Source: a virus (taxonomy: Duplodnaviria > Heunggongvirae > Uroviricota > Caudoviricetes). From it: DNA of 64,000 nucleotides. Under the pieces are notes generated by a model that searched no databases, had not been told where the DNA came from, and was given only the letters and a program-made list of their open reading frames with translations. Where the stretch lies: IMG/VR virus record IMGVR_UViG_3300037790_000024; one strand, 5' to 3'. Below, one piece after another: positions 2,822 through 44,108 of this stretch (position 1 is its first letter; every line of letters begins with the position of its first letter). The translations under genes were made by a program, and so were the position numbers.

Positions 2822-4439
2822 CCATTAACAAACCTGTAGTGTCATCCATCTTGAGAACATCAGCGTAGCCAAGGTAGCCCCAAGGTCTATTTTTAAGGAC
2901 AACAAGACGAATCCTGCCCCTGCTTTTATCAGGCATAATCTCTGGTTCTACACCAATGATGATCCAAGAGAGTTGTTCAATACCAGAAGCCCCTTTAAGG
3001 TCTTCCTTCCTAACAGGAACCCAGAAAGGTTCATTCTCTTTACCTTTTGGTGGCCTAAAGTCTTGAGCAATGTTTCTATTCAGATGTGACACTAGAATAA
3101 TACCAACATCGTTTGTGTTAGCAGCAACATAGGCAGCAAGCTCCACCATCGTGTCCTCAGTAGCTGAGTATTGTTCAGATGCACTAGCTCCTGTTGTAAG
3201 CATTGTCAAGTGATCTAGAATGATGTAATCTACTTTATTTACATGAACATAGGTGTTTACTTTATTCATGAGTTCATTCAAAGGCATTTTACCAAAATGA
3301 TCTAAGAACGTAAATTTATCAGCTTCAATACACCAGTCATAAGCAGCTTGGAGGCTTTCCATACTAGCAAACTTCTGAGGCTCTTTCTTAAAGTGATTGT
3401 AGTTAATCTCTAAAAACCTAGCACCCATTCGCTGTAAGGTTTCATCTGTCTCCTCTTCTAGGAATATCATCCCGATTCTTTGGTTTGCTTCAGCCAAGTG
3501 GTAGGCAATTTCTGCTGTCAGAGTGGATTTACCAACACCCGAAGGAGCTGTAACCACCACAACCTCTCTCTTACGAAAACCGTGTATCTTTTCCATAAGT
3601 TCTGGCATTGTAGGAATATAAATACCTTCCTCACGTTTACGTGTAAAGGTTTCAAAACCAATATCCCTGCCTGTAACCACCTTCTCAGCAGAAAACGGCT
3701 TAAACTTAAAGCTAAGCAGTTTCTGGAGTTGTTCACTTCCAAGCTCTAGGTAAACATCATTAGGATCTTTCTGTTCATAGCCTGTCCAGTCTAATGCATT
3801 AACACCACCTCTTAACAAACTACTTGCTACGTTCTCTGTGCATTCCTTACCTCGGATGGTTCCTTTACGTTTTTCTTTATCAGTGGCATAATCATTATCA
3901 AAAGCTAAGTTAATCTCTTTAAAACTAGATACAAACTCAATATTGTGCTGAACAGCTTCTGTGGCGTTTGCTGTACCACAAGACAGTCCTACAAGGAAGG
4001 GTCTCATGCCTTTGTATTTTGTTGTAGAATCAGCCCATTCACAAAAGGATTGATAGGAAATCATAGTGTCTTCCTCTCCTTCCACCATAATCAGCTTTGT
4101 TCTAGCCCTATCATTCTTTTCAGCCACAACTTGACCAAAGAGCTTTGTTTCTACACCAGCCTTACCAATCGTTGTGATATAAAACTTATCATTTTTAGCC
4201 AGTGTTAGATCTTTTTTCTTCCATCCACACAATTTACCACGCTTGTCATATTGAGGAAAATAGAATGCAGTGGGAGTGTACCCATCTGACGTATCTACCG
4301 ACATTCTGACATTAAATATCTCTACAATGTAATCTTCTATCCCTCTAGAGGACATATCAGCGTAGGGATACTCCTCTATTTGTTTTACAGTTTCTTTTGT
4401 TGTACTCACAAAAGTGCTATCTCCTCTTCGGTATGCCAT
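2790..4439 (-). CDS. primase-helicase (TOPRIM primase domain fused to DnaB-like hexameric helicase; T7 gp4-like)
   Basis: TOPRIM-like MVEGEEDT and LAFDNDYATD acidic motifs; Walker A VTAPSGVGKST; Walker B-like IILDHL; 549 aa. Confidence 0.85.
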   Translation of the reverse strand: MAYRRGDSTFVSTTKETVKQIEEYPYADMSSRGIEDYIVEIFNVRMSVDTSDGYTPTAFYFPQYDKRGKLCGWKKKDLTLAKNDKFYITTIGKAGVETKLFGQVVAEKNDRARTKLIMVEGEEDTMISYQSFCEWADSTTKYKGMRPFLVGLSCGTANATEAVQHNIEFVSSFKEINLAFDNDYATDKEKRKGTIRGKECTENVASSLLRGGVNALDWTGYEQKDPNDVYLELGSEQLQKLLSFKFKPFSAEKVVTGRDIGFETFTRKREEGIYIPTMPELMEKIHGFRKREVVVVTAPSGVGKSTLTAEIAYHLAEANQRIGMIFLEEETDETLQRMGARFLEINYNHFKKEPQKFASMESLQAAYDWCIEADKFTFLDHFGKMPLNELMNKVNTYVHVNKVDYIILDHLTMLTTGASASEQYSATEDTMVELAAYVAANTNDVGIILVSHLNRNIAQDFRPPKGKENEPFWVPVRKEDLKGASGIEQLSWIIIGVEPEIMPDKSRGRIRLVVLKNRPWGYLGYADVLKMDDTTGLLMDASDQDEFYG

Positions 4440-8879: not shown

Positions 8880-10226
8880 TTAGAACAATGATTTCACTTC
8901 GTCAAGAGTGACACCTAACTTTTTCAACAAGGCAGCTCCTGCTTCAGTGGATGCAAAAGCTTCTAGTGATTGTCCCATAGACATACCTCCTGCTGGAGTA
9001 AGTACATCCATCAGCTTATTAACACCCCCGTTGACATCAGAGCTATTAGCAATAACTTTCAGATCACCTTCAGCCAGAGCTTTAGCTTGTTCAATACCCA
9101 CCACTTCGTCTTTTTCCACCTTACGAATTTGAATCAGGTAGTCTTGGTAGCCAGCATTCTCACCGATCTCTTTAGCCAGAGTGATCTGAGGATCAACAAT
9201 AGCCAATTCTGCCAGTTTCTTAGCCTCTGCTTCTGATGTACCGATAGCGAGAATACCTTCAGCTTCCTTCTGTGCTGTAATAAGAGCAGCTTCAGCAGCA
9301 CGTTCAGCAGCAGACTTATCACCTTCTGCACGTAGTTCTGTAGTGCGACGATACTCTTCAGCATTCTGAATTTGCACTTCTTTAGCAATTTCAGCAGCTT
9401 TAACATCTTCCACTTGTTGTACAGCCATTTGTTTCTCTGCTGTAATACGAGCTTCTTCCTGTACCATCTGTTTAGCTTTCTCGTTAGAAATACCTACAGC
9501 TTGATCTTTCTCCGCAGTACGGATACCAACTACTTGCTGAGCTTCTTGATCTTTAACATCAGACTCTCGTTTAGCTTCAATCTCTGCGATCTCTGCCAGT
9601 TTGCGGTTATTAGCCACTTCTGTACGGGATTCCATCTCAATATAAGATTTCCGCTTTTCCATAATGTTTTGGATAACTTGGCTTCCATCAGCATCACGGA
9701 TGTCCATTAATTCAATTGATTTAACTGTGCGAACACCCCAGCTTTGGAGTTGTTCATTCACTTCTTCTGTAAATTGGTCTCCATACACAGAGCGGTCTTC
9801 CATAATACTCTCAATCTCACTACGAGCAAGGATTGTACGAGCAGCACCTTGTAGAATGCTTCTCAGATGATCCTTTAGTTCTTCGATAGAAGATACACGT
9901 TGAGCAGCTTTAGCAGAATCTTCGATGTTAAAGAACGCTGTAATATCTACAAAGAAAGGCAACCGCTGTTTATCATAAGCACGATACTCTACCAAATTAA
10001 TATCAAAGTTGGAGACGGGTAGGATAATCCGTGTAATACCAAAACGGGGAACCCACTCTGGAATGTTATAATAAACATTTTTAGGAAAGTCCTTACCAAA
10101 AGAAACCGTCTGGGAGTTCTTCTGGAGGATATGCACCTCATTAGTAGGAACAACGACACGGAACAGGACAGCAAAAACCACCCACAGCGCTGCTACTACA
10201 CCAATACCAATAATACTTGTAATCAT
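8880..10226 (-). CDS. SPFH/band-7 (flotillin-like) membrane protein with long Ala/Glu-rich coiled coil
   Basis: N-terminal TM helix MITSIIGIGVVAALWVVFAVLF; band-7 core; repetitive AE-rich C-terminal half. Confidence 0.7.
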   Translation of the reverse strand: MITSIIGIGVVAALWVVFAVLFRVVVPTNEVHILQKNSQTVSFGKDFPKNVYYNIPEWVPRFGITRIILPVSNFDINLVEYRAYDKQRLPFFVDITAFFNIEDSAKAAQRVSSIEELKDHLRSILQGAARTILARSEIESIMEDRSVYGDQFTEEVNEQLQSWGVRTVKSIELMDIRDADGSQVIQNIMEKRKSYIEMESRTEVANNRKLAEIAEIEAKRESDVKDQEAQQVVGIRTAEKDQAVGISNEKAKQMVQEEARITAEKQMAVQQVEDVKAAEIAKEVQIQNAEEYRRTTELRAEGDKSAAERAAEAALITAQKEAEGILAIGTSEAEAKKLAELAIVDPQITLAKEIGENAGYQDYLIQIRKVEKDEVVGIEQAKALAEGDLKVIANSSDVNGGVNKLMDVLTPAGGMSMGQSLEAFASTEAGAALLKKLGVTLDEVKSLF

Positions 10227-30179: not shown

Positions 30180-30387
30180 ATTCAAAAACAGACTTATTAT
30201 TCTACCACTGTTAATAATCATTCCTGTAGTGGCTCTTGTAGTAGGCACTGTAGATGGTTGTTGGGAGATTATAACGACAGGTTCTTACACAGAAACTTGG
30301 GAGTGGTTAAAAGAGGGTTGGAGTATTTTTAAAGAAGGTGTAGTTATTTTCTGGAAAGGGGGAGATCCTAGTGAAAATATTATTTAA
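30169..30387 (+). CDS. membrane protein
   Basis: MFHRFKNRLIILPLLIIIPVVALVVG TM helix. Confidence 0.45.
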   Translation: MFHRFKNRLIILPLLIIIPVVALVVGTVDGCWEIITTGSYTETWEWLKEGWSIFKEGVVIFWKGGDPSENII

Positions 30388-31336
30388 AGGACTATTTGGA
30401 AGTCACTTGTACGGACTTAATACAGAGAACAGTGACAGAGACTATAAAGCTGTATACCTGCCAGAGCCTGAGGATATTATCCTAGGTAGAGCTAAGGGAA
30501 GTATTTCTCACTCTACAGGCGGGAGTGATAGCAAGAATTCCTCAGAAGATGTAGACACAGAGTATTTTTCTCTTCAAGAGTTTGTCAAACTGGCTTGTCA
30601 GGGACAAACTGTAGCTATTGATATGCTTCACACCCCTCCTAGCCTAACTTTGGAAACTAGTGAGATCTGGGAACATCTTGTCTCTCATCGTCAATTATTC
30701 TATTCTAAAAATATGGACTCCTTTATGGGCTACGTTAAGAAACAGGCTGCTAAATACGGGATTAAAGGAAGTAAGGTAGCTGCATTGCAAGAGATTCTTG
30801 ATGTGATTGAAGAGGAAATGGATACAAACGGAGATATTCCTGATATATCTTATCTGCGTCATTCTCTGCCTGTCAATGAATATTGTTTCTGGGTGGATGA
30901 AGAAAACAACGGACAGAGCTTTTATTCGGTGAATGGGTCTTGGATGCATGATGTAATTTCTGTAGGGGAACTCCAGTCTAGAGTGCAAAAGCAGTATGAC
31001 AATTATGGACACAGAGCAAAACAAGCCGCTAATAATGAAGGTATTGATTGGAAAGCAATTAGTCATGCTCTAAGAGCTGGGTATCAACTTTACCATATTT
31101 TTGTAGAGGGAGATTTTGAATATCCTCTGATAGAAACCTACTACCTTAAGCAAGTTAAGGCTGGAGAGCTAGACTATACAACAAATGTTGCAGAGGAGCT
31201 GGAGCTTCTTGTGGAGATGTTAGATGCTAAAAGTGCTGAAGCACCTTTCCCAGAAAAGGTAGATTTTCAATACTGGGATGAATGGGTGTATTCTGTCTAC
31301 CTACAACATATTTTATTAGAGGAGGGGCTGCTATGA
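30371..31336 (+). CDS. nucleotidyltransferase (Pol-beta superfamily minimal NTase fold; resembles 'predicted nucleotidyltransferase' PF10127-type)
   Basis: N-terminal hG[GS]x9-13 DxD motif: LFGSHLYGLNTENSDRDYKAVYLP; GTG start with RBS; 321 aa. Confidence 0.6.
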   Translation: MKILFKGLFGSHLYGLNTENSDRDYKAVYLPEPEDIILGRAKGSISHSTGGSDSKNSSEDVDTEYFSLQEFVKLACQGQTVAIDMLHTPPSLTLETSEIWEHLVSHRQLFYSKNMDSFMGYVKKQAAKYGIKGSKVAALQEILDVIEEEMDTNGDIPDISYLRHSLPVNEYCFWVDEENNGQSFYSVNGSWMHDVISVGELQSRVQKQYDNYGHRAKQAANNEGIDWKAISHALRAGYQLYHIFVEGDFEYPLIETYYLKQVKAGELDYTTNVAEELELLVEMLDAKSAEAPFPEKVDFQYWDEWVYSVYLQHILLEEGLL

Positions 31337-34153: not shown

Positions 34154-34723
34154 CTATTTTGATAATAATTTGTAATCTGGGAAATACTTCTTCATCTTAG
34201 GCAGATGATTTGCCTGAGAGTGCTCTTTCTGGCTCTCAGACAACTCTGACTCAAAGAATGTGATGGTCTTATTCTCTATATCTCTCAAAAACTCTATAGA
34301 GGGAATAAGTGCCACTTTTGAAGTAGGGTTCCAACTATACACCCTATTAATTCCTGTGTCAATATGATCTACTACAGCACGATCAAATCTATCCTTAATA
34401 CTATAAGGATCACAGAACATAATTTGGAAGTTTTCTCCTTCCCACCTAAAAGAAATAATTCTGTTTATTGTAAAATTGTTTCCTTGGTAGTATTCCGTGT
34501 TTACATCTTGAAGTATATTTAGAGGTTCTTCTAAAGCTTTCTCTAAAGCATTCTTCTCATCTCCTGCAAAGGTTCTAAGATAGATGTCAATATCATTGCA
34601 GGGTTTTCCCATCCACCAATCTCTACAGGCTCCCCCCGCAACAACTGCCTCTTCATCTACAAGATCGTGAATCCTCTCTAAAAACAAAGAGGCCACTTCC
34701 ATTTGTTTTTCTATTCTATCCAC
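34154..34723 (-). CDS. hypothetical protein
   Basis: 189 aa. Confidence 0.5.
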   Translation of the reverse strand: MDRIEKQMEVASLFLERIHDLVDEEAVVAGGACRDWWMGKPCNDIDIYLRTFAGDEKNALEKALEEPLNILQDVNTEYYQGNNFTINRIISFRWEGENFQIMFCDPYSIKDRFDRAVVDHIDTGINRVYSWNPTSKVALIPSIEFLRDIENKTITFFESELSESQKEHSQANHLPKMKKYFPDYKLLSK

Positions 34724-35535: not shown

Positions 35536-35778
35536 TTAGTATCCTTGAATCAAAACAATCTTAATATGTTCTTCTGGATCAAGATCTTCCTCGGCTACAC
35601 ACTCAGCCATGTATTCACTCTCGTAAATATATTCTTCACCTACCCAAGTAGCTGACATGGCATATTGACCATGATCAGCCTCTACCCTAACCTCCATCTC
35701 TGGATCAAGGTTTTCCAACTGTTTAATTAATTCTCTCACTTTCATATTAAAACTCCTCGTTATAACTACCAACATCAA
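35536..35778 (-). CDS. hypothetical acidic protein
   Basis: 80 aa. Confidence 0.4.
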   Translation of the reverse strand: MMLVVITRSFNMKVRELIKQLENLDPEMEVRVEADHGQYAMSATWVGEEYIYESEYMAECVAEEDLDPEEHIKIVLIQGY

Positions 35779-36652
35779 AAATGTTTGGCATACCTTTTAA
35801 AGTCCAGTGACGAATCATCTGTCTGCGATCATCAAAGACAGCATAAACATTATATTTTCCCCTAATGTGATTTTCGTACAACTCGTCTTTAATTACAGAG
35901 TCTTTACGGGAATCTCCGGCCTGTCTCATATACAGGGTAGGTTTAGGAGTTATATAGGAAGAAATCCATTCATAAGTTTCTTTATAACAACTTCCATCCC
36001 TACCTGATAAGAAGATAATATCTATCCCAGTTTGAGAACGAATCCCTGAGACAGCAGCTATAATAGACTCTCTAGGAGAATCTTCCCCCACCTTGCTCCA
36101 ATCAAAAGGCGATCTTCCTTCCATAGAGGCCACAGTACCGTCAATATCACAGATAATGCAATCTGGTAGATCAGGAGCATGCTCATAAAGTTTAACACTT
36201 CCAAACTGTCGTTCAAACCTTATATACTGATCCCACAGTAGAGCTTCAGACAAACCCCCCTGTCTCTGAGCGTTACGCTTAACTAAAGTTTCCCAAGGAC
36301 AAGGGAAGAGTTTTTCCTCATAATCATACCCACAGTCCTTAGCCCACTGCTTCCATTTATTACGAGCTTTGGTGCTAAGGTTGGTATCTGAAATTATGAT
36401 GTTGGAGTTATTGTGTGTAGCCCACTTAGCTTTCTGCAACTGAACCTCAGTAACCTTATTCTCATTGTTTTTTGAAAATTTATACTTAGTCCAGTCCCTG
36501 ACAGAATTTGTAAACAATGAAAAGCGGATCTCATCTCTATTGAGGTTAGCCCATTTCTCACCTTTAGCTATACCTTCTATCTTGAACTCTTCAGCCCAAG
36601 TAGTTTTACCTGAAGCGCTGGCTCCAATTGTTAAAATAATTTTTGGCATCAT
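35747..36652 (-). CDS. pseT: polynucleotide 5'-kinase/3'-phosphatase (T4 Pnk homolog)
   Basis: MMPKIILTIGASASGKTTWAEEF vs T4 [22 protein letters not shown]; C-terminal HAD-like phosphatase DIDGT...DDR; 301 aa, same length as T4 Pnk. Confidence 0.85.
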   Translation of the reverse strand: MMPKIILTIGASASGKTTWAEEFKIEGIAKGEKWANLNRDEIRFSLFTNSVRDWTKYKFSKNNENKVTEVQLQKAKWATHNNSNIIISDTNLSTKARNKWKQWAKDCGYDYEEKLFPCPWETLVKRNAQRQGGLSEALLWDQYIRFERQFGSVKLYEHAPDLPDCIICDIDGTVASMEGRSPFDWSKVGEDSPRESIIAAVSGIRSQTGIDIIFLSGRDGSCYKETYEWISSYITPKPTLYMRQAGDSRKDSVIKDELYENHIRGKYNVYAVFDDRRQMIRHWTLKGMPNIFDVGSYNEEF

Positions 36653-36933: not shown

Positions 36934-37215
36934 CTACCTCCCTTCATAAAACCACATATACGCATTACAGTAGGCATGCACTGCCCCCTCTGTCATCCCA
37001 GTGTTATGATCATGCTGTAGATGGACAGGCCATTTAAGAAAATTAGGAGGAAACAGCCTCCAATCAATATACTTGCTAGTTATACCAGCAGGGGGCTTGT
37101 TTATCAACAACTCGTTGCAAAACATGCAACGGCCTTTTTGTCTTCTAACATACTCCTCTCTAACCTCCTTTCTTTCTCTAGGAGAGAGTTTTTCATAGTT
37201 GGTGGGGAGATTCAT
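36934..37215 (-). CDS. hypothetical Zn-binding protein
   Basis: CMFCNE...HLQHDHNTG...HAYCN. Confidence 0.45.
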   Translation of the reverse strand: MNLPTNYEKLSPRERKEVREEYVRRQKGRCMFCNELLINKPPAGITSKYIDWRLFPPNFLKWPVHLQHDHNTGMTEGAVHAYCNAYMWFYEGR

Positions 37216-38510
37216 TATGAAGCATCCTCCTCGTCCACGTTTTCTTCTTTGTAGATCCCTTCCATAATGCGGAATGCTTTAGATTTGTTTTTATAAAACT
37301 TGGGTGTCAAACCTTGTCCATCTACACGGATAACAACACCTTCATTAACATGAGATGGATCTCTGTAGTCTTCTGTCAACACCTCAGGGCGGTCTGTTAG
37401 CTGATCTACCAGTTCTACTAGTTTATCTTTATCTCCATCATAAACAAAAGGCTCTACCAGATCAAGAGGTGGCTCAATGCCACGTTGCTCACACCAAGCT
37501 ACCAACTGAGGCTCTGTCAAATCCACCTCTGTTCCATCTACAGTGGTGTATGTAACACGGTAGGCGTAAAACTTGTAGTTTCCTTCAGGGCAACCATACT
37601 TGTACACCATAGTGTCTCCATACTTCTTAGTGTAAGCCTTGTCTTTTAGAGTTTTTACATTGTGGCTTCCCATAATAGGTTTGTCGTTAGCGTAGCCCAC
37701 GATCTCCCCATATACAGTAACACCTCTTTCCAGATGAGGCTTTAGTTGCTCCAGAATCTCAAAGCGAAAGGCTTCTGATCCATGAAAACCGTCTTTGTCT
37801 TTATCGACAGATTTCAAAACAACTCTTCGTGTGCCTGCAACATATTCCCACTCTTCTGTTTTGAAGATAGGCACTACTTTATTAATCAACTTCTTCCACT
37901 CTGGAAGATTTTTAGTCACCAAGGTGTTAGAATAACGAGCTGAAGTGCCATGTCCTTTAGCCTGAATAGAGATAACAGATCCAACAGGAATACGATCAAC
38001 ACTATATTTAAACTGATCTGTATCTACGTGCTGGTGGAACAAAGGAGTTTCAACAGCTTTACGAGCTTGTTTTTTCTTGTTGCCAATAGCTCTGAGGGTG
38101 TGAGGATTGACATATTTCTTAGCAATGCCAACTCCATTCAGTTCTTCAAACTGATCTCCCAAAGAAAAAGTGTCAATATCATAGCCAGTGAACACCAAGG
38201 AGTTAATATCAGTGAAATAGCCACAAGATTTAACTCCTAAGAAAGGTTGTGCTCTCACCTTACCGTTGTCGTCAAAAAATCCTTTCTTGTCAGGATCTTT
38301 GTTTTTATCTGAGTGGCGATAAAGATTGTTGTTTGACAAAAACTCTGGAGACAACTGAGTGTCTGGTGGGAAGAACACACCAACATACCCCACTTCCAGT
38401 TCTTTTGAAACAATAACTGGTTCTCCAAGTACATACGCCACTTGAATTTTATTTGCCTTTTCGATAGGCTCAACTTTGTCAATTTTTGCAATAATACCAC
38501 AATAGTTCAT
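37215..38510 (-). CDS. RNA ligase (Rnl2-like nucleotidyltransferase motif KxHGT) fused to N-terminal tRNA-binding OB-fold (EMAP/Myf-like) domain
   Basis: N-term CGIIAKIDKVEPIEKANKIQVAYVLGEPVIVSKEL resembles tRNA_bind domain; IQAKGHGTSARY resembles Rnl2 motif I EKIHGTNFS; adjacent to pnk; 431 aa. Confidence 0.6.
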   Translation of the reverse strand: MNYCGIIAKIDKVEPIEKANKIQVAYVLGEPVIVSKELEVGYVGVFFPPDTQLSPEFLSNNNLYRHSDKNKDPDKKGFFDDNGKVRAQPFLGVKSCGYFTDINSLVFTGYDIDTFSLGDQFEELNGVGIAKKYVNPHTLRAIGNKKKQARKAVETPLFHQHVDTDQFKYSVDRIPVGSVISIQAKGHGTSARYSNTLVTKNLPEWKKLINKVVPIFKTEEWEYVAGTRRVVLKSVDKDKDGFHGSEAFRFEILEQLKPHLERGVTVYGEIVGYANDKPIMGSHNVKTLKDKAYTKKYGDTMVYKYGCPEGNYKFYAYRVTYTTVDGTEVDLTEPQLVAWCEQRGIEPPLDLVEPFVYDGDKDKLVELVDQLTDRPEVLTEDYRDPSHVNEGVVIRVDGQGLTPKFYKNKSKAFRIMEGIYKEENVDEEDAS

Positions 38511-42624: not shown

Positions 42625-42709
42625 TGGTGGGTGTAAAAGGAATCGAACCTAAAATGCCTTACGGAACGGGGTTACAGCCCGCACACGATCCATACGTGTC
42701 TATACACCC
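42625..42709 (-). tRNA. tRNA-Tyr (GTA), type II
   Basis: Acceptor GGGTGTA/TACACCC, anticodon loop CTGTAAC, long variable arm, GGTTCGATTCC T-arm, encoded CCA. Confidence 0.7.
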
Positions 42710-42879: not shown

Positions 42880-42950
42880 TGGGGTGACGCGCAGAATCAA
42901 ACTGCTCCATACAGGGTCACAACCTGATGTCCTCTCAGAGGTACGCCACA
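42880..42950 (-). tRNA. degenerate tRNA-His-like element (anticodon GTG; abnormal D-arm); possible pseudo-tRNA
   Basis: Acceptor GTGGCGT/GCGTCAC + C73 + CCA, anticodon loop TTGTGAC, but D-arm only about 11 nt. Confidence 0.3.
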
Positions 42951-43016
42951 TTAAATAAGTGAGAGGTTGTTGGCGCAACCCCTCTTGATGAATTGACAGC
43001 TCATCATCGTTTATTA

Positions 43017-43282: not shown

Positions 43283-43371
43283 TATAAGGAGGATTCTAGA
43301 TACGTCTACCTAGCGATACTGGTACTCCAGTCAACGTACTCTCGCAGAGGTTCCTCTCTCTCTTTTTGTAT

Positions 43372-43447
43372 TGGTTGAGGCAGTTGGACTTGAACCAACG
43401 ACAACCCGATTATCGGTCGGGTACTCTACCAACTGAGTTATGCCTCA
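43372..43447 (-). tRNA. tRNA-Ile (GAT)
   Basis: Acceptor TGAGGCA/TGCCTCA, anticodon loop CCGATAA. Confidence 0.75.
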
Positions 43448-43452
43448 TTATT

Positions 43453-43581
43453 TGGTGGAATGATCTGGGTTTTATCCAGAGACCTAGTTTCAAACTAGTC
43501 AGCCTTGTATAGCCAGCATAAATTGTCTCGGTTTGGACTTACCTCCCCTCTCTTTTCGGACGACTCTCCTGCTTTCATTCC
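43453..43581 (-). ncRNA. 129-nt tRNA-like element: 7-bp acceptor-like stem GGAATGA/TCATTCC + A + CCA, T-arm-like hairpin, about 55-nt insertion in 5' half
   Basis: Sits in register within the tRNA array, 5 nt from tRNA-Ile and 6 nt from tRNA-Asn; internal hairpin GACTAG-TTTGAAA-CTAGGTC (anticodon-like TGA). Confidence 0.4.
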
Positions 43582-43587
43582 GTAAGG

Positions 43588-43659
43588 CTGGCATGGTAGG
43601 ACTCGAACCTACGACAACAACATTAACAGTGTTGCGTTCTACCACTGAACTACATGCCA
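43588..43659 (-). tRNA. tRNA-Asn (GTT), CCA not encoded
   Basis: Anticodon stem CAACA/TGTTG loop CTGTTAA; T-arm GTAGGTTCGAGTCCTAC. Confidence 0.75.
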
Positions 43660-43745: not shown

Positions 43746-43875
43746 GTGTATTCTATCACAGTCTGTTCCTGTGAGTCAAGCCCTAACCATCACGTTAGTT
43801 AATGCGCCTTAGCGGGGATTCAAACCCTATTCTGATACCAATTGTCGCTACCTAGCAGAATCGAACTGCATGCTC

Positions 43876-44046: not shown

Positions 44047-44108
44047 ATGTCTCTCATTTCTTACAAGTATTATACCATTATTTTTAAAAATTGCAAGGAC
44101 TTTTTACA

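Follow-up and report, generated by a model that had tools for sequence, protein, structure and literature searches.

A 129-nt element in register with a phage tRNA array

The DNA analyzed here, referred to as the window, is a 64,000-nt stretch from a phage (Caudoviricetes; IMG/VR record IMGVR_UViG_3300037790_000024) and carries a tRNA array on its minus strand, extending from about 44046 to 42625. Within this array the minus strand encodes a 129-nt tRNA-like element (43581 to 43453), which has tRNA-Asn on one side and tRNA-Ile on the other and whose ends read GGAAUGA...UCAUUCC-A-CCA. Positions in the RNA are numbered from 1 (43581) to 129 (43453), and the parts of the element are listed with all other features in Table 1. 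Ten tRNAs of the array are called by both ARAGORN and Rfam. CCA is encoded by 11 of the 12 array tRNAs, as it is by the element (direct reading), and the other array tRNAs are spaced 4–11 nt apart and all have a canonical T loop. As proposed in a first-pass annotation made from the letters of the sequence, the element lies in register with its neighbors: it starts 4 nt past the ARAGORN end of tRNA-Asn (6 nt past the Rfam end), and its CCA is followed by a 5-nt spacer, AAUAA, before tRNA-Ile begins.

The structural parts on which that annotation had been based are all present. A perfect 7-bp acceptor stem is followed by the discriminator A and an encoded CCA, the T-arm-like hairpin directly abuts the 3′ acceptor strand, and the anticodon-like hairpin (GACUAG-UUUGAAA-CUAGGUC) lies just 5′ of the T-like hairpin. 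The 7-nt loop of the anticodon-like hairpin, UUUGAAA, presents U33, a UGA ‘anticodon’ and A37 on a stem of four pairs plus an A-G opposition, for which a bulged alternative can also be drawn. Except for a variable region of 2–3 nt between this hairpin and the T-like stem, the 3′ half of the element (anticodon-like hairpin, T-like arm, acceptor strand and ACCA) has near-tRNA spacing. The equivalent of the G53:C61 pair is found in the T-like arm, with A in place of both T54 and C56, and the D-like hairpin, whose loop is devoid of GG, occupies the place of a D arm relative to the anticodon arm. The 5′ half had been described as about 55 nt too long, which is borne out by an excess of about 58 nt; the acceptor stem and the D-like hairpin are set apart by an extra arm of about 59 nt, and without this arm the core would form a small cloverleaf of about 71 nt. 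The 51-nt loop of the extra arm is 71% purine and mostly unpaired, and contains AGGAG and GGGGAGGU. Two further words of the element were counted in the window: the motif GAGAGRGRRG occurs three times in 64 kb, once in the element and once in the array gap at 43283–43371, and the hexamer AGTCGT occurs twice on both strands together, once in the element, with about 30 occurrences expected assuming equal base use.

Table 1. Coordinates of the element, its array, the RNA-repair genes of the window and over-long tRNA-like units of other phages. Positions refer to the window unless a locus is named; L006 is Klebsiella phage FBKp34, L007 phage T4, L008 the closest relative and L009 a relative with a 75% identical terminase large subunit (TerL).
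Feature	Position	Strand	Basis or remark
Whole tRNA-like unit, 129 nt	43453–43581	−	Sequence, fold, pattern match
Acceptor stem 5′ strand GGAAUGA, RNA 1–7	43575–43581	−	Pairs with 43457–43463, probability 0.87–1.0
Extra arm, RNA 9–67, 4-bp stem AGCA/UGCU and 51-nt loop	43515–43573	−	Stem probability 0.84–0.90
D-like hairpin GGCU-AUACAA-GGCU, RNA 68–81	43501–43514	−	Pair probabilities 0.87–0.97
Anticodon-like hairpin, RNA 82–101	43481–43500	−	Pair probabilities 0.5–0.99
T-like arm UCUGG-AUAAAAC-CCAGA, RNA 102–118	43464–43480	−	Pair probabilities 0.85–0.99
Acceptor 3′ strand UCAUUCC, discriminator A and encoded CCA, RNA 119–129	43453–43463	−	Sequence, fold
tRNA-Asn(GUU), upstream neighbor, 3′ end G-CC-U	43586–43659	−	ARAGORN, Rfam
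tRNA-Ile(GAU), downstream neighbor	43372–43447	−	ARAGORN, Rfam
tRNA-Tyr(GUA), long variable arm, ends ACCA	42625–42709	−	Relaxed ARAGORN
Non-canonical tRNA-His(GUG)-like cloverleaf, odd D arm, discriminator C and CCA	42882–42950	−	Rfam tRNA 15.4 bits
Promoter-like TTGACT-18-TAGAAT, extended −10, just upstream of tRNA-Met	43750–43779	−	Consensus match only
Promoter-like site before tRNA-Gly	44069–44096	−	Consensus match only
Terminator-like hairpin after tRNA-Gln, before the tRNA-His-like unit	42961–42984	−	Consensus match only; strong hairpin, T run weak
Polynucleotide kinase-phosphatase (Pnkp)	35747–36652	−	Pfam HAD_PNKP 142 bits, AAA_33
RNA ligase	37215–38510	−	PHROG 968 E = 1.5e-45; Pfam RNA_ligase
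RlaP-family nucleotidyltransferase	30371–31336	+	Pfam PF10127, 51.5 bits
189-aa open reading frame (ORF)	34154–34723	−	Sub-threshold match, PolyA_pol/CCA-adding head domain
Over-long unit, 114 nt	L006 12008–12121		Perfect 7-bp acceptor stem
Over-long unit, 180 nt	L006 18297–18476	+	Unannotated, after tRNA-Leu(UAA), fold z = −3.5
Over-long unit, 105 nt	L018 4973–5077	+	Unannotated, after tRNA-Leu(UAA)
Over-long unit, 115 nt	L010 5449–5563		Perfect 7-bp acceptor stem

Predicted fold and chance expectation

The element was folded without any constraint and pairing probabilities were read out from the ensemble. Five helices, each of high ensemble probability, are formed under these conditions, namely the acceptor, AGCA/UGCU, D-like, anticodon-like and T-like stems, so that the terminal complementarity, for which a fold constrained at the acceptor stem had been suggested as a check, is used even when no such constraint is applied (Table 1). 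The acceptor stem (7 bp) and the T-like stem (5 bp) add up to a 12-bp stack consisting of Watson-Crick pairs throughout. When the element was co-folded with tRNA-Asn and tRNA-Ile, each of the three units formed separately.

The chance expectation was evaluated for a generic pattern of 85–220 nt in total, comprising a 7-bp Watson-Crick terminal stem, a hairpin with a 5-bp stem and a 7-nt loop that abuts the 3′ strand, and N-CCA thereafter. A random 64-kb window contains on average 0.15 such matches, and those in the actual window are limited to tRNA-Ser and the element. By a hand estimate, the probability that such a pattern fills the 134-nt gap with its ends within a few nt of the neighboring tRNAs is of the order of 1e-6. 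These results confirm that the tRNA-like element is real and non-random.

The element is derived from tRNA and distinct from canonical tRNA

A covariance model (R1) was built from the element alone, and its best scores in the relatives fall on genuine tRNAs (tRNA-Ile of L008, 21.6 bits; tRNA-Lys of L010, 20.6 bits). In addition, the segment GGUC-UCUGG-AUAAAAC-CCAG is identical at 16 of 20 positions to the variable-loop/T-arm region of the L010 tRNA-Asn. Given that R1 scores on tRNAs and that GGUC together with the T arm resembles real T arms, the element is, judged by its sequence, tRNA-derived. The proposal of a tRNA-like element in register with the array is thus supported both by the intact parts relevant to processing and by the weak recognition of genuine tRNAs by the element-based model. 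An origin from tRNA-Ser(UGA) or tRNA-Asn in particular was considered and rejected, as neither gave a convincing alignment.

Measured against a canonical tRNA, the 7-bp acceptor stem, the discriminator and the 3′ CCA are all found in the element. The T-like arm agrees in stem and loop length, but its loop reads AUAAAAC and not T54-Ψ55-C56...A58; the D-like hairpin is separated from the acceptor stem by about 60 nt and its loop, AUACAA, is without G18G19. Because T54, C56 and G18G19 are missing, a canonical elbow cannot form; by eye, the T-like loop might pair with AUUUA at RNA positions 59–63, which would be a possible replacement for the elbow. An Rfam scan of the element at gathering thresholds and at E <= 10 matched no family (tRNA, tmRNA, YrlA, group I intron or ribozyme), the tRNA model RF00005 giving no match even at E <= 10, and ARAGORN made no call for the element on its strand in default, relaxed, intron-allowing, mitochondrial or transfer-messenger RNA (tmRNA) modes.

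The suggestion of a tRNA carrying a small intron was not supported: the insert has the acceptor stem on one side and the D-like hairpin on the other and so lies outside the anticodon loop, intron models gave no match, and the insert-free core is still without G18G19, T54 and C56, with a variable region of 2–3 nt. A group I intron was likewise rejected, given that Intron_gpI gave no match, that the insert of about 58 nt compares with a usual length of >200 nt and that it is not located in the anticodon loop. Further candidates were a tmRNA (the third pair is A3-U70 and not G3:U70, the length is 129 nt, and neither ARAGORN nor Rfam gave a match), a YrlA or Y-RNA-like RNA (RF02553 unmatched at E <= 10, and the ends of the element form an acceptor stem) and a hammerhead-like reading of CUGA..GAAA (ill-fitting core, no match in Rfam); none of these was retained.

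By established identity rules, seryl-tRNA synthetase (SerRS) recognizes a long variable arm and G73, and the anticodon UGA is read by no other synthetase. As the element has neither G3:U70 nor the long variable arm or G73 for SerRS, and presents the anticodon UGA, it is probably not aminoacylated.

Search for homologs

The phage is without a close relative in the phage collection, where TerL reaches <= 54% identity, in Stephanstirmvirinae-like and Aeromonas/Vibrio phages; the next TerL in a collection of 5.8 billion proteins is 77% identical. Identical contigs were found in several samples, with the tRNA array 100% identical in all of them; samples containing the phage are SRR12659294, SRR12659219, SRR12659100, JGI 3300037780 and 3300037784 and the Ga0160421 sample. 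The comparison covered ten syntenic relatives (TerL 77–56%), IMG/VR loci and phage FBKp34. The gene order PhoH-endolysin-[array]-small ORFs-TerL is kept in L008, L009 and L010, the closest relatives in which these genes occur, and partly in L015, with rearranged arrays.

The homologous insertions in related phage tRNA arrays, for which a search had been recommended, were not found by nhmmer, blastn or model R1. Megablast and blastn against the phage collection matched individual tRNAs and left the element unmatched, and nhmmer and blastn-short against 95 fetched loci returned identical copies only. R1 retrieved only low-scoring ordinary tRNAs, whether run on 30 loci including the window, on the L008 array with filters off, or on eight loci of which four were new. 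An exact 28-mer of the element had no match in IMG/VR, and a search for IMG/VR loci via the neighboring proteins (a 276-aa ORF and PhoH) retrieved no relatives; no homolog of the 276-aa ORF protein was found. A pattern scan of JGI metagenomes gave one identical contig and one chance match in coding DNA, and two scans of GTDB genomes together with a further IMG/VR scan gave nothing, or a chance match inside a Metapseudomonas gene.

In L008, a gap of 177 nt is located just upstream of tRNA-Ile, and its first ~118 nt can be closed via GG(A)UACU/AGUACC beside an A-rich-loop hairpin. As an ortholog of the element this gap was rejected, its similarity being at chance level (p = 0.54) and its fold unremarkable.

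Other observations were made in the relatives. At the syntenic place in L009 (2546–3249, minus strand) tRNAs are absent; TTGCAA-17-TATAAT is followed there by ~700 nt devoid of ORFs, whose ends are complementary over a long range (GUGGGG...CCCCAC) and which contain a TCTGG-TGCAAGT-CCAGA hairpin and have no match in Rfam. In L008, an 85-nt tRNA-Asn(GUU) (3605–3689, minus strand) has a long, class-II-like variable arm of a kind not usually seen in tRNA-Asn. In L013, a group I intron (9722–9937, plus strand; Rfam 86 bits) lies immediately upstream of the terminase large-subunit gene.

A putative processed tRNA mimic in an RNA-repair context

Taken together, we favor a reading in which the element is a tRNA-derived, non-decoding tRNA mimic that is maintained and processed as a small RNA gene within the tRNA operon; on the features of the sequence described above, we put its probability at about one half. 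RNase P uses the 12-bp acceptor/T stack as a ruler and pairs the RCCA end with its P15 loop (PMC11143913), and the element contains both of these determinants. Transcription would proceed from the promoter-like site at 43779–43750, a consensus match and the likely start of the element's transcript, together with tRNA-Met, Asn, Ile, Leu, Leu and Gln, giving a precursor of the order Met-Asn-X-Ile-Leu-Leu-Gln in which X is the element; the terminator-like hairpin after tRNA-Gln is a possible end of this transcript. RNase P would cut 5′ of G43581, and the 3′ end would be freed by cleavage in the AAUAA spacer and the RNase P cut of tRNA-Ile, followed by trimming back to CCA. The predicted product is a stable, non-chargeable RNA of 129 nt.

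The combination of intact helices and a changed T loop was also considered under a toy model of uniform neutral decay, in which the joint probability that the 12 acceptor and T pairs are kept while T54 and C56 are both changed is <= 7.5e-4 at any rate. Within the limits of this model, to the extent that a single sequence, which cannot prove it, allows, the result argues that the helices are maintained.

With regard to a possible role, the phage encodes Pnkp, an RNA ligase and an RlaP-family nucleotidyltransferase (Table 1). Enzymes of the RlaP family extend damaged RNA 3′ ends by nucleotide addition, and the restoration of heavily damaged tRNAs depends on them (PMC12776372). Going by these gene assignments, damage to tRNA and its repair are among the themes of this genome, and the presence of the three enzymes makes a decoy or adaptor role plausible. 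We would tentatively, and with considerable doubt, speculate that the mimic competes for or recruits a tRNA-binding factor in a tRNA-centered conflict with the host; candidates for this factor are ribotoxins, modification or repair enzymes and, from the phage itself, Pnkp, RNA ligase or RlaP. Speculatively, the specific interaction surface could then be the open loop, which is rich in purines and includes AGGAG and GGGGAGGU. A more far-reaching version, which we regard as a long shot, would see the element as the first of a distinct class of phage effector RNAs: an RNase P-matured, CCA-ended mimic whose elbow was traded for an open purine-rich arm with GGGGAGGU, and which would dock on a tRNA-binding host defense nuclease or the ribosome, or present itself to the repair enzymes of the phage (Pnkp, RNA ligase, RlaP). 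Since the four GGA triplets are close to the expectation from composition (hand estimate), the idea of a CsrA-type GGA sponge was rejected.

Several points weigh against the processed-mimic reading and its extensions. The ten syntenic relatives contain no homolog of the element, so the nearest relatives do without it, and as no homolog was found beyond identical copies, no covariation speaks for the helices; although it offers a clean new point of entry to a class of RNA that has long gone unexplained, the element is an orphan. At z = −1.16 the folding energy of the whole molecule is unremarkable, owing to the 51-nt inner loop, which is essentially unpaired and for which no inner structure is predicted. 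The D-like and extra-arm stems were products of energy minimization and not given a priori. tRNA relics are apparent in other gaps of the array, so decay products exist here. For the decoy or adaptor role, plausible as it is, the genomic context is the sole evidence. A k-mer scan for an antisense target within the window gave a best complement of 11 nt, which is chance level. Finally, the purine tract is ordinary in this genome, with 31 purine runs of >= 14 nt in the window, which leaves a Shine-Dalgarno/anti-Shine-Dalgarno role as only a lead.

Alternative explanations

The alternative that survives best, and which we judge rather unlikely, is that of a relic, in which a tRNA gene (or the fused product of a tandem duplication) has gained an insertion and lost its function and is still excised by tRNA-processing enzymes. 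It would fit with the lack of conservation in the closest relatives, with the unstructured inner loop and with the tRNA fragments held by other gaps of the array (T-arm hairpins at 43746–43875; a copy of a tRNA-Leu 5′ end at 43283–43371), and a weak, non-significant similarity of the inner segment to the variable arm and T arm of tRNA-Ser (p = 0.29) hints at tRNA-derived filler. Against decay stand the exact register with the neighbors and the pattern of change itself, in which 12 perfect acceptor and T pairs and an intact CCA are accompanied by the loss of both elbow partners, a combination that uniform decay makes improbable, as computed above. The identity of the element in several independent assemblies is uninformative on this question, since the whole region is identical. 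Should the element be only a relic, it would be a caution for the annotation of tRNA arrays.

A working, unusual tRNA with anticodon UGA that reads UCN codons, the extra arm being either tolerated or removed with the halves rejoined by Pnkp and RNA ligase, is considerably less probable. Its appeal lies in the loop UUUGAAA, which nearly equals the tRNA-Ser(UGA) loop CUUGAAA, in the arm-free core of about 71 nt and in the healing and sealing enzymes of the phage; moreover, the relatives and T4 pair tRNA-Ser(UGA) with tRNA-Ser(GCU), and this phage has the GCU species only. The failure of the Rfam tRNA model and of ARAGORN in all modes to recognize the element speaks against it, as do the missing T54, C56 and G18G19, the variable region of 2–3 nt and the absence of the long variable arm or G73 that SerRS would use. 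No splicing endonuclease or bulge-helix-bulge-like motif is evident, and the T loops of the other array tRNAs are canonical without exception.

About as improbable, and slightly weaker still, is a cis-acting module that organizes folding and cleavage of the precursor, or buffers transcription between sub-operons, without any function in trans. An element that is in register and folds independently could act in this way, and promoter- and terminator-like sites do explain two other gaps of the array; the other array tRNAs, however, need only spacers of 4–11 nt, and an encoded CCA and an anticodon-like hairpin would be superfluous for a spacer. A random arrangement of complementary ends in a spacer, for which the generic pattern frequency of 0.15 per random 64-kb window might be cited, has practically no remaining probability, considering that the gap between two tRNAs is filled exactly, that an anticodon-like hairpin and ACCA are present in addition and that the element's own covariance model picks up real tRNAs.

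Other features of the array

Besides the features considered so far, the array contains two units that are recognized with difficulty. tRNA-Tyr(GUA) was missed by default ARAGORN and by Rfam at gathering (31 bits, tRNA-Sec only), and the tRNA-His(GUG)-like cloverleaf at 42882–42950 was not called by ARAGORN. The 130-nt gap after tRNA-Ser (43746–43875, minus strand) contains GCAG-TTCGATT-CTGC and GGG-TTTGAAT-CCC, a pair of hairpins whose T loops are canonical and which resemble tRNA relics. In the 89-nt gap after tRNA-Ile (43283–43371, minus strand), GCGAGAGU duplicates the 5′ end of the next tRNA-Leu, and a purine tract, AAAAAGAGAGAGAGGAA, is similar to the tract in the loop of the element.

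Comparison with other phage arrays and known systems

Over-long tRNA-like units were also found in the arrays of other phages (Table 1). Like the element, the units of FBKp34, L018 and L010 lie between tRNAs, have a perfect 7-bp acceptor stem abutted by a T arm and carry 30–100 extra nt on the 5′ side or in the middle. In contrast to the element, they keep canonical T loops, two of them are still scored as tRNAs (Rfam 49 bits; GenBank ‘tRNA-Asp’), and their inserts contain UACAGCAA, a motif that is linked to DUF2828 genes and that the window lacks. By sequence, these units are not homologous to the element. The over-long tRNA-like design is thus recurrent in phage arrays, and what sets the element apart is the combination of a degenerate T loop, an arm with an open loop and an ACCA that is encoded.

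In L010 (5150–6010, minus strand) and L006 (11440–12130, plus strand), which are only distantly related phages, a DUF2828 gene (43% identical between the two) adjoins a promoter-driven, ORF-free stretch. Each of these stretches contains five copies of (U/A)U-ACAGCAA-(C/A/U)U, of which some mark the 5′ edge of a hairpin loop and some lie inside the over-long units of 115 and 114 nt. The DUF2828 loci look like a protein accompanied by a family of small RNAs; no literature or PDB match was found for this combination, and it is absent from the window.

Among known RNAs, tmRNA offers a parallel in two respects, the framing of a large insert of non-tRNA sequence by an acceptor stem, T arm and ACCA, and the processing by RNase P; unlike tmRNA, the element has no G3:U70, no tag reading frame and no pseudoknots. 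YrlA is alike in being a non-coding RNA with a tRNA-mimicking domain that is tied to loci of RNA repair or quality control. YrlA is, however, permuted, its ends forming the Ro-binding stem and not an acceptor, and genes for Ro/TROVE or DUF2828 were not encountered in the window.

The closest known analogs of the element, by design and setting, appear to be the species 1 and species 2 RNAs of phage T4 (rnaC and rnaD). In T4, rnaD (119–120 nt, one nucleotide after tRNA-Arg) and rnaC (137–139 nt) follow tRNA-Arg in register within the tRNA cluster. These small stable RNAs have been known since the 1970s and accumulate late in infection, with no function on record to date (PMC3014915; PMC9697503). 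Neither has an Rfam family. The rnaC/rnaD region (L007 4909–5172, minus strand) is present in ~790 phage records, with 88–100% identity across Tequatrovirus-like genomes, and in most of these records the two RNAs are unannotated or lie under ‘hypothetical protein’ calls.

The element resembles rnaC in its in-register position inside a phage tRNA cluster and its similar size, as well as in its architecture, in which the terminal helix abuts the T arm, an anticodon-like hairpin precedes it and all of the excess is found on the D side. In contrast to the element, rnaC has a canonical T loop (UUCGAAU) and an imperfect terminal helix with two U-U mismatches, without discriminator or CCA. The expansions differ as well, rnaC having a long stable hairpin (z = −4.6) where the element has a 4-bp stem with an open 51-nt loop. 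With rnaD the element shares the property of being a small RNA gene within a tRNA cluster, and differs from it in that the predicted fold of rnaD has no clear tRNA-like ends. Local alignment places the sequence similarity of the element to the T4 RNAs at chance level (p = 0.998 for rnaC, 0.27 for rnaD). GCAGG..AGUCGU and GUAAGUCGU were rejected as shared motifs, because GUCGU is a common word of tRNA variable loops and T stems; the GUCGUC-type words that the element and rnaD have in common are likewise found in ordinary tRNAs, where the variable loop joins the T stem.

Overall, the element is best grouped, as a further and orphan variant, with the small RNAs of tRNA operons that T4 species 1 exemplifies. 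If units of this type, which occur in several phage arrays besides T4 rnaC and are mostly unannotated, are functional tRNA mimics, they would represent a neglected layer of the conflict between phage and host over tRNA and a source of naturally self-processing RNA scaffolds, and, if the effector-RNA reading were true, the T4 species-1-type RNAs would gain a testable function. The comparison points to a T4-like design principle in an unrelated, uncultured phage, in which the acceptor/T minihelix is kept and the D-side body is replaced, the element being a cleaner form of this design, with a perfect stem, an encoded ACCA and a set of RNA-repair genes in the same genome.

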